Shown here piece after piece: positions 3,320 through 47,752 of a DNA stretch of 64,000 nucleotides (positions are counted from its first letter, which is position 1; every line of letters starts with the position of its first letter). Location of the stretch: contig CAWDSK010000004.1 in assembly GCA_963804995.1 (NCBI GenBank), positions 32,001-96,000 on the forward strand, given 5' to 3'. The stretch comes from an uncultured Acidobacteriota bacterium. GTDB lineage: Bacteria; Acidobacteriota; Terriglobia; UBA7540. The notes under the pieces were generated by a model. It was given only the letters and a program-made list of their open reading frames with translations, made no database searches and was not told the origin of the DNA. The position numbers and the translations under genes were made by a program.

Positions 3320-4369
3320 ATGTTTAGCGGACTTCCCTGGGGATTGGCATTATCGAGCGGCGTCAATACCTACCTGCCACTTTTCCTCCTCGCCCTCTTC
3401 GCGCGTTTTGGCCACGTGATTCATGTTTCCTCACGCTTCACGTGGCTGGTCTCCGACCAGGCTATTTTCATCCTGGGCCTGCTGGCGCTGTGCGAAATCC
3501 TCGCCCAGAAATTCCCGGTGCTCAACAACCTCTGGGATTTCCTCCACACGCTGCTGCGACCCTTGGCGGGAGCTGTGGCCGCGGGCGCCACCCTGTCGAC
3601 CAACAACACCTTTGAAATCGCCGTGGCCATGCTGATGGGCGGGGCGCTCGCCGCCGCTGCGCACTCCACCAAGTCCAGCCTGCGCCTGATGAGCACCTCC
3701 AAAAGTTTTGGGGCCGCGAACTTCGCCATGAGCCTGGGCGAAGACGCCGGCGTTCTCACCGCCACGCTTCTCTCCGTTTACGCTCCCTACGTCATGTTGG
3801 CCATCGTCATCATCTTCGTGGTGCTGTTTGCTTTCCTGGGGCCGCGCATCTTGCGGACCCTGGTGTTTGACTTGAGTATTGCCGGGTCGGCTTTGGCGGG
3901 GCTCTTCCGATGGGTCTTCCGAAGGAAGTATCCAACAGACCTTAAAGAAAGCCTGTTGGACATTGCGCCGGAGCGGCTTGGCAAGTTCACCGTTCTCTTG
4001 GAGCCGCACGAAGAGTTGCACGGAGCCTTGCCGGGCTGGAAGCGCTCCCAGGGTGGACCGCGCCGCACCTGGGTCCTGCTGACCTCGCGCCGGCTGCTCT
4101 GGATTGAATCGCGCCTTTTCGGTAACTCCAAAGTTCAATCGCTCGACTACTGCGAAATATCCATGGCTAGACATCGCAACATGATCCTTTTCTCGCGCGC
4201 CGAAATCCTGACCCAGGGGAATGAAACCCTTAGCCTGGCAATCGAAAAAGGGCATATCCCTTACGCGAAGATGGCGGTGCAGATGATCTCTCGCCTCGCC
4301 GGCCTTGACGTCCCGAATGATAACCCCGCGCCCCAATCTGCCCCACGGCTTGCCGCGTTACCTCACTGA
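3320..4369 (+). CDS. DUF4126-like membrane protein with a C-terminal bacterial PH-like domain
   Basis: SSGVNTYLPL, E..AQKFP...WD..HT.LRPLAGA, SLGED motifs; C-terminal LLTSRRLL. Confidence 0.75.
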   Translation: MFSGLPWGLALSSGVNTYLPLFLLALFARFGHVIHVSSRFTWLVSDQAIFILGLLALCEILAQKFPVLNNLWDFLHTLLRPLAGAVAAGATLSTNNTFEIAVAMLMGGALAAAAHSTKSSLRLMSTSKSFGAANFAMSLGEDAGVLTATLLSVYAPYVMLAIVIIFVVLFAFLGPRILRTLVFDLSIAGSALAGLFRWVFRRKYPTDLKESLLDIAPERLGKFTVLLEPHEELHGALPGWKRSQGGPRRTWVLLTSRRLLWIESRLFGNSKVQSLDYCEISMARHRNMILFSRAEILTQGNETLSLAIEKGHIPYAKMAVQMISRLAGLDVPNDNPAPQSAPRLAALPH

Positions 4370-4393
4370 GCGTTTGAGAATCGATCGCTCGGC

Positions 4394-4747
4394 GAGCTCA
4401 TGTTCCTGTGCCATCCATCCGATTACCGATGCGGGGGAGTGCGTGTCACGGGCGGGGGCTAGCAATCGGGAGATCGGTTGGTCCGGAGATCGGGTGACCG
4501 AATGATCGGAGCAGCAAGTTACTGCCAGCCTCCGCTCGGCCGAATAGGGCTCATGTTCCGTCATAAACCTGCCGATAACCGAAGCGGGGGAGTGTGTGCC
4601 CGCCGGGACGAAGTCGATCCGGCGTGATTTGCGGATAACGGACCTCTTGGGTGCCACAGCTCGAGCGTCTCTGCGCAGGGCTCCCGGCCCAGCCGTTGCA
4701 AGATCATCCTCAGGAGCCAACCTGCCGATAACAGATGTGGGGAAGTG
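4394..4747 (+). repeat. three-unit array of CTCATG-N15-(G/T)CCGATAACCGA(T/A)GCGGGGGAGTG, period exactly 153 bp
   Basis: TCAT at 4398, 4551, 4704 and CCGAT at 4419, 4572, 4725; unrelated ~105-bp spacers. Confidence 0.85.
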
Positions 4748-5018
4748 ACAGCCGGGGGCTGAAACAGGCGGCTGCAGCGGATCTGTTTGGTCGGCTGCCC
4801 GGGCCACCCTCAACCTCCCGTCCAACGCCTGTCGCCCTTTCCAGCTTCGCCCCGATCATCACGTCACCCGATTCTTTCAGCCCTGTTCTCGACGGGGGTT
4901 CTTTCGTCTCCCAACTTGAAAGCAGGGCCGCCAGCTTGGTGGGTCAATCCAGGCTGGGGGCCGACGCTTGGTTCGAATTGGGACGGCTTGCTCCATTTTT
5001 CTTCCCATTTTCTTAACT

Positions 5019-5274
5019 AACTCCCTTTCTTTTCATAAACATCGTGGCAAAAAAACCATAACTTATTTGTTTTCATCAACATCGTTAGACTTGCCAAATT
5101 GTCCGGTCCCCCGCCCATTGTTTTCATACACATCGTTAGACTATCCTGATTGAAATTAGTTGCGCCTTTCTTCCGGCGCCTTTAGATGTAACTACTTGTA
5201 TTTCAACTAGATAGATTCTTACTAAAAAACCTGTTTCCACCCCTAACCGCCTTTTTTTTCATTAACATCTTCAC
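5019..5274. repeat. AT-rich direct repeats (consensus AACnnnTTGTTTTCATnAACATCGT), 4 clear copies and 1 degenerate
   Basis: Copies near 5019, 5060, 5112, 5190 (degenerate) and 5245; the last overlaps the C-terminal codons of the 5243-6394 ORF. Confidence 0.8.
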
Positions 5275-6394
5275 AAGCAGCGGGCGCTTCTGGACCTTCT
5301 GCACGCGACGCATGTCGTTTAATCTTCATAAGCAGGTTCGTCAAACGCCAGATTTGGCGAAAGTAGGAGTCTTCCATTCTCTGCATGACCATGGCGGAGA
5401 GATGGGTAGGCGCGATTTCTGCGGCACGTTCATAAGGCGAGGGACCTTTCACGCACTCCCGCAGATTGGCAAGGCGCTCCATCTCGCACAACTCCACCTG
5501 ACGCGTCAGGATGTGCTGCAGAAGTTGGCGCACCCGCTCCCGAGATTCCCATTCCTCCTCCGTAATCTGGGGATAATCGGCCTGCCTTGTATCGGCGGCC
5601 TGCAAATCGGCACTTGCCTCTGTAGCGCCGACCTTGAGGTCGGCACTTACCGGATCGAAGTCCGCCGGCACGTCGCCTTCCTCGTCCGGCGGGGTTTCCG
5701 GCTCCAACCCGAAGCCCCGTTGCCTTTCTTCCTCCCGGGTGAAGGGGGGCAAATTAAAGATGGCTCGGGCCTGAGTCACGACTCGGCGGGCGTTCTCAAG
5801 CTCATCCTCCACTTCACCCGCTTCTTCCGATTCCACAGCCCCCGGCGCCTGAAGCTGGCAGAAGAGTGCGAGAGCGATTTCGCCCAATTCCTTCATGGCT
5901 CCCTCGCGGCGCAAGTTCTTCATTTGCTCGAGGTCTTCGGGCGTGGTGACGTAATATTCCTGTGCCACCGATTGGGCGAGCATCTGCAAAACGGCGGAAT
6001 TCATTTTCAGATTCATCATGTGCGCGTGCAGGCGGGCCTCCCGGCCGCGGTTTGCCTCCTGCGCCTGCCGCACGGCCATGCCCTCCTGCATGCGGTCAAA
6101 ACGCTTCATCCGCCACAGGGCCCGCGCCAGACGCTCCACCAATTCTTCCTCCGAACCGCTGCGGGGGCGCCACTCGCACTGGAGTTTTTCCCGCAGTTCC
6201 CGAAGGTCGGCTGAATCCTCACCCAGGTCGAGCAAGGCGGTTTCTTCCCACTGCGCGTAACGTCCATGGCGCAAGTGCGCGGCGCGGATGCGCTCCACGC
6301 CCTCCGCCGTCTTCGGGCCGTGCGAATGCTTTCGGTTGCGCCGAAGGGCGGCCAGTTTCTTGGCCGTCAGGCGCGGCTTCTTGACCAGTGACAT
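5243..6394 (-). CDS. hypothetical protein with a basic N-terminus (RRNRKHSHGPKTAEG...LRHG) and helical, acidic body
   Basis: GGAGG RBS before ATG 6394; 383-aa ORF; N-terminus matches an N..S.GP.T.EG..R.....HG family of uncharacterised proteins as I recall it. Confidence 0.75.
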   Translation of the reverse strand: MSLVKKPRLTAKKLAALRRNRKHSHGPKTAEGVERIRAAHLRHGRYAQWEETALLDLGEDSADLRELREKLQCEWRPRSGSEEELVERLARALWRMKRFDRMQEGMAVRQAQEANRGREARLHAHMMNLKMNSAVLQMLAQSVAQEYYVTTPEDLEQMKNLRREGAMKELGEIALALFCQLQAPGAVESEEAGEVEDELENARRVVTQARAIFNLPPFTREEERQRGFGLEPETPPDEEGDVPADFDPVSADLKVGATEASADLQAADTRQADYPQITEEEWESRERVRQLLQHILTRQVELCEMERLANLRECVKGPSPYERAAEIAPTHLSAMVMQRMEDSYFRQIWRLTNLLMKIKRHASRAEGPEAPAACEDVNEKKGG

Positions 6395-23000: not shown

Positions 23001-23582
23001 AAGCCCCCATTGTCGTTCGTGTCCGTGGCTAAGCGAGCAGACTTTCGACCCGCAGCTAAACCAGAGAGTCTGGTCGGAGGCAACGTAGACGCTATAAGAC
23101 CGCTTGGTGGAGATAAAACGAGATTGACCTCCGCCCCGCAGAGGCATTGACCGAAGGCCTCCTGGCGTGGCCACATAGAGATTCGTGGCGTCACTCCCGA
23201 TTGCCTGGCCGCTTTCCAGTTCGACCCCTTCAAAGCCCGGCACCGCAGCGAAATGGTCTCCCGTCCAGCGGAACAAGCCCAGGCTCGCTCCTACCCAGAA
23301 CTGGCCATCCGGTGAACTGTGCAGGGAATGCGTGTCGCCCCGATTCGCCACGGGGTCTCCGCTGAAGTGCCAAAAACGGTCGCCGTCGTAGCGAAAGAGA
23401 CCGCCCTCCGTGCTGACCCAAAGGTAACCTTCATGGTCCTGGTGCAGGGCAAGAATCGTGGGATTGGTCAGGCCCAGGTCAGCGCCGTACATTTGAAATG
23501 ACCAATGCTGCCCCTGCGCCGTCCAGGCACAAAGCAGCAGCCACCCCGCGCTGAATACCGCGATACGCGACCTCATAGTCAT
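20082..23582 (-). CDS. hybrid sensor histidine kinase (beta-propeller, Y_Y_Y, HisKA, HATPase, REC)
   Basis: Signal peptide, Reg_prop repeats, KSEFVANMSHEMRTPLN, NAIKFT, DTGIG, GGTGLGL, MDIQMP.MDG. Confidence 0.95.
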   Translation of the reverse strand: MTMRSRIAVFSAGWLLLCAWTAQGQHWSFQMYGADLGLTNPTILALHQDHEGYLWVSTEGGLFRYDGDRFWHFSGDPVANRGDTHSLHSSPDGQFWVGASLGLFRWTGDHFAAVPGFEGVELESGQAIGSDATNLYVATPGGLRSMPLRGGGQSRFISTKRSYSVYVASDQTLWFSCGSKVCSLSHGHERQWGLDDGVTTGFWSSIAKDTVGRLWIRANEKVLVREAGGSVFYAPHNLPALNSTHGSLLVPTRLGQMLIPHNAGLMVCNGESCRNYGAESGLRHTGVLATLEDQEGSIWIGYSGQGLARWLGRDQWQSFAEGEGLTDPGIWRMVRDAAGDLWIGTSRGLYQGTRQGGRWRFRRSDAVGELTVYGLAAEPDGSLWVGTFQSQVHGLLRYYPQTHKKVLYPPSQPIPQFSIYELNRDAAGTVWVATPRGVMRLIPGHSELEPVPLPLNGASVFDIKTSANGLFAATKKGLYIEQGGIHRLLTTAEGLKDNSVQSVVIGPDGALWIDYFSSSGITRVDLQGNKIQLRTYTVDDGLPSNVVYSQFFDTHQRHWLATDSGVAVLEDNHWKSYDTSDGLIWNDCNAHAYHAEADGSVWFGTSAGLSRFQPAVESRFILPATLISSVLRNDFPTTHTDFDPSTRSLGLRFTILSYRRHYSTFRYRIGNDSSSWVQTRSPEVRFAELPAGSYRFEVQGEVEPGVWSRPAFLNFRIREPWFDSWPCRVVLLLLMVANAWLLWRRREARLRKVRAQLEIEVEERTRDLATARARAEQASRVKSEFVANMSHEMRTPLNGVIGFTHLALQLAEQPEVVEYLKTVQLSAKGLLHLINDVLDFSKLESGRVEIVPVTFALRPFLAEICSMLRREVSRKRLALTTCVDDSVPEWVRADDGRLRQVLTNLLGNAIKFTSHGAVTLEVAPLANRLKFTVTDTGIGIPADKQNIVFDAFQQADNSTSRRYGGTGLGLTISKKLVESMGGQLRLESELGKGSTFWFSIDAPASTPERPVEKPLEETPVRPMRILVVEDNRVNQHLILALLRKRGHITAVAGNGVEALTAVERDSFDLVLMDIQMPEMDGLEAVRRIRKAEEKTGQHLPVVAMTARAMVGDRESILAAGMDDYLEKPVQLERLDAILSLVSTTGLACPIAPPDLGEPTDSGEAVI

Positions 23583-23590
23583 CCCTATAC

Positions 23591-23620
23591 TTTATCGGTC
23601 GAAAGCGCCCCGGGCATGAG
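23591..23620 (-). promoter_or_regulatory. sigma28 (FliA/WhiG)-like promoter of the kinase gene
   Basis: CTCATG-N15-ACCGATAA lying ~10 nt upstream of the start codon; the -10 resembles GCCGATAA. Confidence 0.6.
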
Positions 23621-46067: not shown

Positions 46068-46536
46068 CACACTTCCCCGTATCGGTTATCGGCGGGATCG
46101 ACACCAAGCATGAGACAAATTGAGTGGCCGGTGACAAACAGCTTGCCCCCTCACCCGTCCCGCCCCGGCTCGTGAAAACGCCGGCAGCGCGCCACCCTCT
46201 CCCCCCGGAGAGGGCTATGAATTTTTACCTTGTGCTGGTGAACCAATGGCCCTACCCCCCGATCGACCCCCGCCCCGCCGTGACGCACTTCCCCGCTTCG
46301 GTTATCGGTGGGTTAGCGGCCGAACATGAGCTCAAAATCGACTTCGGCAATCACTCAATCACCCGATGAACCGATGTCCGACGGCCCGATCAGAGGAGCA
46401 GTGGCGAGTGGCTAGTGGCTAGTCGCCAGAAATGGCAAAGTCCAAGGGCGGCAAGGCAGCCCGTACCGATGCTCTCCCCCCGGCGTGCCATACTCACCCA
46501 CATCGGTTATCGGTGGGTTCGTAGCCGAACATGAGC
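46068..46536 (-). repeat. second three-unit array of the CTCATG-N15-RCCGATAACCGA...GGGG.AGT motif
   Basis: TCGGTTATCGG at 46082, 46298, 46503 (spacing 216 and 205); same 15-nt internal spacing as 4394-4747. Confidence 0.85.
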
Positions 46537-46800
46537 CTATTTATCAACGGTCAGGTCGGCCGTTGGCAGGAATTGGGGCGGCCGGCGATGTTTGGTGGCT
46601 TGCTCGAACGCGTACGCCAGCTTGATGAGGGTGGGCTCGCTATAGGCTCGGCCGAAGAAGGAAATTCCTATCGGGAGGCCGAAGACGAAGCCTGCCGGCA
46701 CTGAAATGTTGGGATATCCTGACACGGCGGCGGGCCGGGAACTTTTCGTGGTCTCCGTTGACCAGGTCGGTAACCCAGGCGGGCCCGGCGGTTTCGGGAG
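46537..46800 (-). pseudogene. C-terminal fragment of an amidase-signature enzyme
   Basis: AAVSGYPNISVPAG...GLPIGISFFGRAYSEPTLI.LAYAFEQAT. Confidence 0.75.
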
Positions 46801-46915
46801 ACGCACCCCGCCCATCCGATATAGTTTGCTGGGACAGCCGTCCCACTTGTTGCTCTCCGCGGGGCGTAGCGGGCGTTGTCCCACTAAAAATCGAGGGTCA
46901 CACCCAAAGTCAAAA

Positions 46916-47101
46916 TCAGTGGGACAGAAGGAAATCGAGCGCCGCGCCTAGAATTCGATTCGCTTCCAGCGCCTCAGCCAGCGCCACTGTATCCACGATG
47001 CTGCCGCGCGCCGTGTTGATCAATAAGGCCGAGGGCTTCATCAGGCCGAGGGTGCGCGAATTAATCAGGTGCCTGGTCTCCGCCGTCAGCGGAAGATGCA
47101 A
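46916..47101 (-). pseudogene. fragment of a D-2-hydroxyacid dehydrogenase
   Basis: HLPLT.ETRHLIN...[19 protein letters not shown]......I.GAALD only. Confidence 0.8.
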
Positions 47102-47752
47102 TAATACGATCGATCAAATCCATGCCCACCGTCCGTACCAGTACCAATTCTCTTCCCGAGTATCGATGAGGCGAAAGCCGTGAACGAATCGAGAAGACCT
47201 CTCACGCCACACAGCCTGGGCGGCAAGCCTCGCCAAGCAGGAACCGAGCCTCTTCTTCGGGCCTTAGCGTGAAGGTTGGGTTTTCTTTCACTCCGGTCGA
47301 AGACCAGGTGCTTTTGTCGCAATTTGGCGCTACAATCAGCGCGGCTGCTGGACTTCCCCCCATTGGCGTTCCTGCGGATTTTCAAACTGCTGTTCGGCGG
47401 CGCGATTCTCAACATGGGGGAGCGATGTTCTTGTGAATGACAGAATGTCTAGCTCACCTCGGCCCCCAGACCTCAAGAACGAGGAATGCCTGCAGGGGAT
47501 TCGAAAAAAGCCCAGTTTGGGGTTCAAATAGCCATGCAGGCATAGAATGGGGCAGGGCGTCCATATGACGGAAAATGCTATTGTATTTTGACATGTATCA
47601 TTTTCTGAGAACCCGGCACGGTGTACCCTCTGCCGGTCAGCTTGGAATACAAAATGCTCGTTACAATTAGATGGTGGGTGTTTGTCAATTTTTGCGGGGA
47701 AGTTGGAAATAGTTATAAGGGGGCCCTCAGCCCATCAATCAGGGAGGTCGAG

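Follow-up and report, generated by a model that had tools for sequence, protein, structure and literature searches.

A genus-restricted intergenic mosaic repeat with a promoter-like head in an uncultured member of the Terriglobia

The array at 4394–4747 and its repeat family

Within the window, a 64,000-nucleotide stretch of the genome of an uncultured Acidobacteriota bacterium (host genome G000), three units of approximately 50 nt lie in one orientation between two convergent open reading frames (3320–4369 on the plus strand and 5243–6394 on the minus strand). The units start at 4396, 4549 and 4702, with spacings of 153 and 153 nt, and in these respects the initial annotation of the locus was confirmed by the coordinates. 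The features of the locus, together with two related sites in the window, are as follows.

3320..4369, plus strand: host DUF4126 gene (context), which in relatives lies directly next to an FNR-like gene, no repeat intervening
4397..4450, plus strand: core of unit 1, with TCATG at 4398–4402, a -10-like TCCGATTA at 4418–4425, a predicted start at about 4433 (position inferred from leaderless genes) and a conserved leader running from GGGGGAGTG to TCACGG
4451..4549, plus strand: body 1, a repeat body of the heptamer type (GATCGGG), which goes with promoter subtype C and is common to at least 10 other arrays
4550..4603, plus strand: core of unit 2, with TCATG at 4551–4555, GCCGATAA at 4571–4578 and a predicted start at about 4586
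4604..4702, plus strand: body 2, 99 nt, for which no homologue was found elsewhere in the genome
4703..4747, plus strand: core of unit 3, with TCATC at 4704–4708, GCCGATAA at 4724–4731 and a predicted start at about 4739
4748..5270, plus strand: non-coding tail, common to several other loci at 79–84% identity, the recurring part being 4757–5243
5243..6394, minus strand: gene of a 383-aa all-helical protein of a multicopy family, antisense to the promoters, with no Pfam, NCBIfam or fold match
23592..23620, minus strand: an ordinary promoter, CTCATG-N15-ACCGATAA, that belongs to the same class but lacks the leader of the repeat
46070..46535, minus strand: second array of the same family, three units with spacings of 205 and 216 nt

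The consensus originally proposed for the three units, opening with CTCATG and a 15-nt spacer, describes unit 2 but neither of the others, as unit 1 carries TCCGATTA and unit 3 carries ATCATC instead of CTCATG; the leader of unit 3 is also shorter, by a deletion of about 90 nt relative to paralogous tails. The strict motif occurs five times in the window, the second array at about 46,100–46,500 included, compared to none in 100 shuffles. One of these occurrences does indeed occupy an ordinary promoter position ahead of the kinase gene at 23582, which encodes a 1166-aa sensor kinase (annotated from its sequence) and whose ATG lies 16 nt beyond the first C of CCGAT. The first unit of the second array begins some 3 nt past the stop codon of an amidase-like gene, of which only a short 3′ remnant is present (window 46537–47300). 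Neither a terminator-like site within the array at 4394–4747 nor an Rfam match for it was found.

Analysis of the complete host genome yielded 31 occurrences of the strict motif, with one spacer length throughout, while an iterated profile recovered 211 units in 91 clusters, none of which is of mixed strand; a control of the profile on the reversed genome gave no match. Only 2 of the 211 units fall inside genes as called by a simple in-house gene caller. Unit spacings extend from 105 to 551 nt (31 of the 120 within 147–156 nt), adjacent spacings are equal in 6 of 66 pairs, and two spacings of the 145–156 class agree by chance 12% of the time, so that the exact 153/153 period is not special. 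The convergent flanks are likewise no rule, the four gene-orientation contexts being represented 27, 24, 20 and 19 times among the 91 clusters. A 155-codon reverse reading frame (4358–4825) runs across the array and was judged incidental, since spacings genome-wide are flat modulo 3 (46/41/33). A peptide read on the reverse strand from TCAT/ATG was rejected on the same grounds and because, despite a start-like triplet in 196 of 211 units, the median length is 29 codons compared to 26 in a control frame.

A relaxed pattern matched 23 of 28 genomes of the same genus and none of 300 from elsewhere in the phylum; the 53 loci retrieved from a genome collection were all from Acidobacteriota or Terriglobia records, and viral contigs gave no match to the repeat. 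Motile relatives have between 0 and 162 units per genome. In relatives the core also forms homogeneous tandem arrays, with periods of 97 nt (L048), 153 nt (L037, eight units), approximately 175 nt (L023) and 139 nt (L140). The array at 4394–4747 is one cluster of a genus-restricted repeat and is not peculiar to this locus.

Composition of the units and their bodies

The consensus of the unit reads TCA-N18-CCGATAA-CCGA-N3-GGGGRAGTG(TG)TCACGG. TCA is positioned at 21 nt in 195 of the 211 units and at 20 nt in two, and the -10 box takes the form GCCGATAA in 88 units and ACCGATAA in 68. This fixed spacing is not an artefact of seeding, since with the right half alone as the query TCA was recovered 21 nt upstream in 118 of 127 matches in G000 and in 67 of 75 in relatives. 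By block, pairwise identity is highest in CCGAT (0.98) and TCA (0.90), intermediate in the leader (0.76) and low in the body (0.32) and in the spacer (0.36), which is constant in length but variable in sequence. No hairpin was detected in the core (mean z-scores of +0.4 to +0.9 as RNA or DNA for 60 of the 211 units), nor were covarying pairs in an alignment of 285 units; a hairpin or attC-like core was dropped as a candidate because it folds no better than shuffles in either form.

The bodies comprise heptamer tracts, hairpin arms that we take to be of DUF559 type and REPs presumably of RAYT type, these family labels being derived in part from gene-flank matching. The DUF559-type arms have the same orientation as the arm before DUF559 genes at 32 loci and the opposite one at 2. 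The spacers of the array are not all peculiar to it: no homologue of spacer 2 was found, but for spacer 1 at least 10 near-full-length homologues at 77–90% identity were identified in other arrays, and genome-wide 111 of 120 spacers share at least 40 nt with another.

These results bear upon the proposal that each unit produces a CsrA-type sponge or some other distinct structured small RNA with a variable body. A constant predicted 5′ end and three GGA motifs per spacer would suit such a function; however, CsrA was detected in 0 of 29 genomes, three GGA in 99 nt lies near the genome background of 1.9 per 100, the predicted unit RNAs fold no better than shuffles (z of -1.24, +1.45 and -0.19) and match nothing in Rfam, no terminator-like site separates the units, and the bodies are generic, shared repeats. 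We regard this proposal as highly improbable; the array is probably a self-spreading repeat and not a set of distinct regulatory RNAs.

Each type of body is accompanied, on its right, by a particular promoter subtype. Variable sites at or to the left of -1 track the type of the left-hand body, while +5, +11 and +13 track that of the right-hand one, and it is on this basis that an exchange point within the invariant CCGAT is suggested; since the sites +7, +10 and +12 show linkage in both directions and the right type could be assigned in only 54 of 176 units, this mapping is noisy. Units thus appear to have been shuffled at the CCGAT.

The location of this linkage switch also favours an alternative in which the core is mainly a recombinase site, similar to dRS3 or att sites, that serves to capture cassettes, its promoter likeness being incidental or secondary. 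The tandem CCGAT-NN-CCGAT, a leader conserved beyond the needs of a promoter, the cassette-like bodies and the polarity described below would all be in keeping with such a site. Its geometry, however, is exactly that of a conserved, genuine promoter (that of the HDOD gene discussed below), the spacer is fixed in length and variable in sequence, hairpins and covariation of the kind seen in attC or dRS3 are lacking, and no recombinase tied to the arrays was found. On balance this reading appears unlikely.

The search for a mobiliser covered several candidate families. Of 14 RAYT genes two are beside arrays; none of the 4 DUF559 genes or 15 four-helix-bundle genes is so placed, and none of 8 IS110 genes lies within 5 kb of an array. 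No recombinase or other mobiliser tied to the arrays was thus found among the RAYT, DUF559, four-helix-bundle and IS110 candidates, while a search for IS91-type elements gave no match, as did its control. No terminal repeat or target duplication of the element was found, and no inverted repeat bounds the array. An origin from a group II intron was considered on account of a GTGYG in the leader and 49 reverse transcriptase (RT) matches and was rejected, as intron ends and targets differ and no homology to intron RNA domains was seen; when five resident RT-intron types were compared to the arrays by BLAST, the matches were limited to a single neighbouring intron copy, short target repeats in the flanks and three others that were short and weak. 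As a separate observation, approximately 38 near-identical copies of a group II intron RT are present in G000 (for example at C2:581151), and all 36 examined follow a REP-like sequence of the GAAGAACCGCAGACC type, while smaller intron families of this genome insert after sites ending in GGA, one of them in tandem.

Promoter likeness of the conserved head

The left part of the repeat (TCATG...CCGATA) has the geometry of the promoter of an HDOD gene situated beside motAB, which was examined at 24 loci, 22 of them scored. T(C/T)A(T/C)G is present at 21 nt in 21 of the 22 orthologues (TCATG in 17, TTATG in 3 and TCACG in 1) and at 20 nt in the remaining one. The same geometry recurs ahead of a RAYT family (seven copies), in which an ATG is found at +14 in three and a GTG in one. 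The promoter of these RAYT-type transposases, TTCAC...CCGATA, was noted at G000:C2:467464, C3:777543, C5:498906 and four further positions, and, its start codon lying 14 nt beyond the first C, the family would be leaderless and of the sigma-28 class. From the position of the start codon in leaderless genes, the transcription start of the repeat is predicted at about the first G of GGGG.

Sigma factors of the FliA family are encoded in 27 of 29 genomes of the genus. G000 has four FliA-like genes, of which two exceed the cut-off; the four lie at C2:295157 (flagellar), C9:163190 (with a trpE-like neighbour), C4:210160 and C6:5354. The genus as a whole has three classes: the flagellar one; a second that is likewise conserved and that, at roughly half of the examined loci, stands next to a trpE-like gene; and copies carried by phage- or ICE-like regions, of which some precede a Gp3-like recombination-directionality gene. 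Two genomes gave no FliA match despite 13 and 18 units (G003 and G014, which are 90% and 65% complete, respectively), and the former retains flagellin.

For E. coli FliA (PMC4183435), the -10 box is given as RCCGATAA, which the box of the repeat matches, variants of the -35 element beginning with TCA occur and many sites are non-canonical. The repeat differs from these promoters in having its -35 element, TCAT(C/G), one base further out than in the fixed-width motif of the ChIP table, in its 20-nt leader and in being multiplied about 200-fold.

Several observations count against a promoter. The -35 element departs from TAAAG, and neither TAAAG nor TCAAG is found at the spacing of E. coli and fliC promoters, 20 nt before CCGAT; the fliC promoters of four genomes of the genus have TTAAG at 20 nt, so that the repeat is one base out with respect to these also. 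Non-repeat sites with TCA at 21 nt are weakly oriented near gene starts (16 sense compared to 10 antisense), and a conserved leader of 20 nt is not explained by a promoter alone. Nonetheless, the HDOD promoter, the presence of FliA and the starts of leaderless genes lend support, at the level of sequence, to the earlier proposal of a sigma-28-like promoter with a constant leader, and we consider that the fixed head is likely to be one.

If so, it might be supposed that some 200 such sites act as a decoy which titrates the FliA holoenzyme and tunes the timing of motility. The 211 repeat sites do face only about 56 loosely matching non-repeat intergenic promoter-like sites, and titration by non-productive FliA sites has been proposed (PMC4183435). 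A decoy is nevertheless difficult to reconcile with a copy number of 0 to 162 across motile relatives, and would require neither polarity nor leader nor mosaic bodies; we consider it very unlikely.

Polar context and interpretation

The clusters have a polarity: behind the units lie host genes and ahead of them repeat-rich, poorly coding DNA, both in G000 and in relatives. Over 1 kb, coding density in G000 is 0.76 behind the promoters compared to 0.35 ahead (84 merged loci, p 1e-10); GC content at these loci is lower ahead than behind, and multicopy bases account for 11% of the DNA behind and 57% of that ahead. By a window metric the corresponding coding densities are 0.78 and 0.24 in genome G043 (23 loci; 30 of the 44 matches were fetched) and 0.74 and 0.21 in mixed relatives of the genus (the 37 of 53 loci with enough flank). 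The median gap from the unit to the next gene is 732 nt, the orientation of that gene being unbiased, and the downstream DNA samples many repeat families.

Clusters located in this manner, at the end of host genes and the start of repeat-rich DNA, often face the 3′ end of the multicopy 383-aa gene. In the window, the tail ends in AT-rich TTTTCAT-AACAT boxes (about 5028–5270) that overlap the 3′ end of this gene. A co-oriented unit lies upstream of 18 of 34 AT-box clusters. AT-box tails follow only 15 of 83 loci, which counts against the explanation favoured below; a structured tail RNA was rejected as a candidate, 15 tails having given only a weak consensus fold. The 383-aa protein is modelled as all-helical (mean pLDDT 76.5) and has 420 relatives, with a family or functional name on none among the 120 matches listed. 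It has no match in Pfam or NCBIfam and no fold match in BFVD or the PDB, its Atlas clusters are unnamed, and matches to PHROG are marginal (E 0.001–0.003, 1 of 56 members each). Two copies that are 99% identical (window 5243–6394 and G000:C6:1401950–1403101) share only about 90 nt of 3′ flank, which suggests recent movement, with one end placed by the sequence inside the AT boxes.

The 383-aa family is represented at 39 loci, 14 of them no more than 2.5 kb from a unit, in a zone that makes up 5.9% of the genome, and 13 of these 14 are antisense to the unit; in relatives the family is downstream of and antisense to the units in 7 of 7. This geometry, together with downstream DNA that draws on many repeat families, could reflect an antisense battery kept by the host, in which RNA timed by sigma-28 and running across the repeat arms and into the 3′ end of the 383-aa gene would dampen these selfish elements. 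When all loci are taken, however, the first downstream coding match is antisense in 40 and sense in 35 (75 of 84 loci with a match), and the arrangement is equally explained if the array is the far end of a 383-aa element. We therefore find a host-kept battery distinctly unlikely.

At the DUF4126 locus itself, the corresponding loci of 14 relatives carry no unit, and in five of them the FNR-like gene is directly convergent with the DUF4126 gene. As the FNR-like gene of G000 now sits behind another array and tail, on C6, the site fits an insertion followed by a rearrangement between copies. Loci of close strains for a comparison of filled and empty alleles numbered zero in two metagenome scans. 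Elsewhere in the genome (G000:C4:176571–178090, L081), the DUF4126 gene has a partial duplicate of its 3′ end, after which come AT boxes and a convergent 383-aa paralogue, with no promoter unit. At the locus of one relative (L072), GGGCTCATG stands directly past the DUF4126 stop codon, without CCGATAA and followed by a hairpin repeat, and may be a remnant or due to chance.

BIME/REPIN, integron cassette and CRISPR arrays all combine a repeated site with a variable body in co-oriented tandem. The repeat differs from them in having no core hairpin, no genes in its cassettes and spacers that are recurrent and variable in length. The palindromic, GC-rich hairpin of REP and BIME is not the unit here, REP-type hairpins occurring only as bodies; spacings of 105–551 nt with 111 of 120 spacers recurrent do not describe a CRISPR; bodies that are non-coding and a core devoid of a hairpin do not describe an attC array; and neither the CsrA/RsmA host nor the many GGA motifs of a CsrB/RsmZ-type RNA were encountered.

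Closer parallels are found among the intergenic repeats of Neisseria and Borrelia. NIME arrays (dRS3 and RS; PMC1797815) alternate a short site with many body families of about 50–150 bp, are dynamic, intergenic and taxon-restricted, and have been proposed as recombination substrates, dRS3 being a 20-bp inverted repeat. The present repeat resembles NIME in the alternation of a conserved site with several body families in variable arrays. It is unlike NIME in the polarity of its arrays and in a core that has a direction, resembles a promoter, is co-oriented throughout and is non-palindromic, with no 20-bp inverted repeat. The study PMC3184786 describes Neisseria REP2 and Borrelia IR-A as bearing a promoter, an RBS and an ATG before genes together with two stem-loops, and Correia elements as bounded by terminal inverted repeats and having promoters that drive small intergenic RNAs. 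With these our repeat shares its multicopy, intergenic nature and a promoter, here a predicted one; it departs from them in that the promoter faces non-coding repeats, with no RBS and ATG placed directly upstream of genes, lacks a conserved fold and is sigma-28-like. Judged from its sequence, the repeat would work like NIME and the promoter-bearing repeats and yet be a member of none, having no palindrome, no genes that it serves and no terminal repeats that we could find. Promoter-bearing and mosaic intergenic repeats are accordingly a known kind in Neisseria and Borrelia, while the polarity of the clusters, the apparent shuffling at CCGAT and the antisense 383-aa family are new. The openly accessible literature searched yielded no description of this repeat, nor of a mosaic repeat built on an alternative-sigma promoter with fixed polarity to repeat-rich DNA.

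The explanation that we favour, with reasonable though by no means full confidence, is a genus-restricted intergenic mosaic repeat, similar to NIME and REP2, with a probable promoter head of the sigma-28 class. Of the possibilities listed by the initial annotation, a promoter-carrying mobile repeat fits best. Transcription by a sigma factor of the FliA family would begin at about the first G of GGGG and continue across the bodies, its output being a read-through non-coding RNA antisense to the 383-aa gene. Recombination at the invariant CCGAT, with tandem duplication, is the likely means of spread and reshuffling. The core would be kept by selection, most likely because the exchange or spread of the element itself depends on it, and the copies may also serve as points of rearrangement.

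A more far-reaching version, to which we give little credence, is that these are growing repeat-RNA loci. An enzyme with site specificity would insert fragments of selfish repeats at the CCGAT of a sigma-28 promoter, and with every fragment a further promoter would arrive, such that a sigma factor of the flagellar family would transcribe a catalogue of the mobile repeats of the genome as well as RNA antisense to a multicopy element. Were this true, it would represent a promoter that doubles as an integration site and a control of the piRNA-cluster kind in bacteria. If the sites of the favoured mosaic repeat are inactive, it is one more lineage-specific repeat; if they are active, repeats would hold most of the sigma-28-type promoters of this genome, and the motility regulon would be tied to the transcription of mobile DNA. 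The repeat marks the edges of islands and probable points of rearrangement in the genomes of an uncultured Terriglobia genus.
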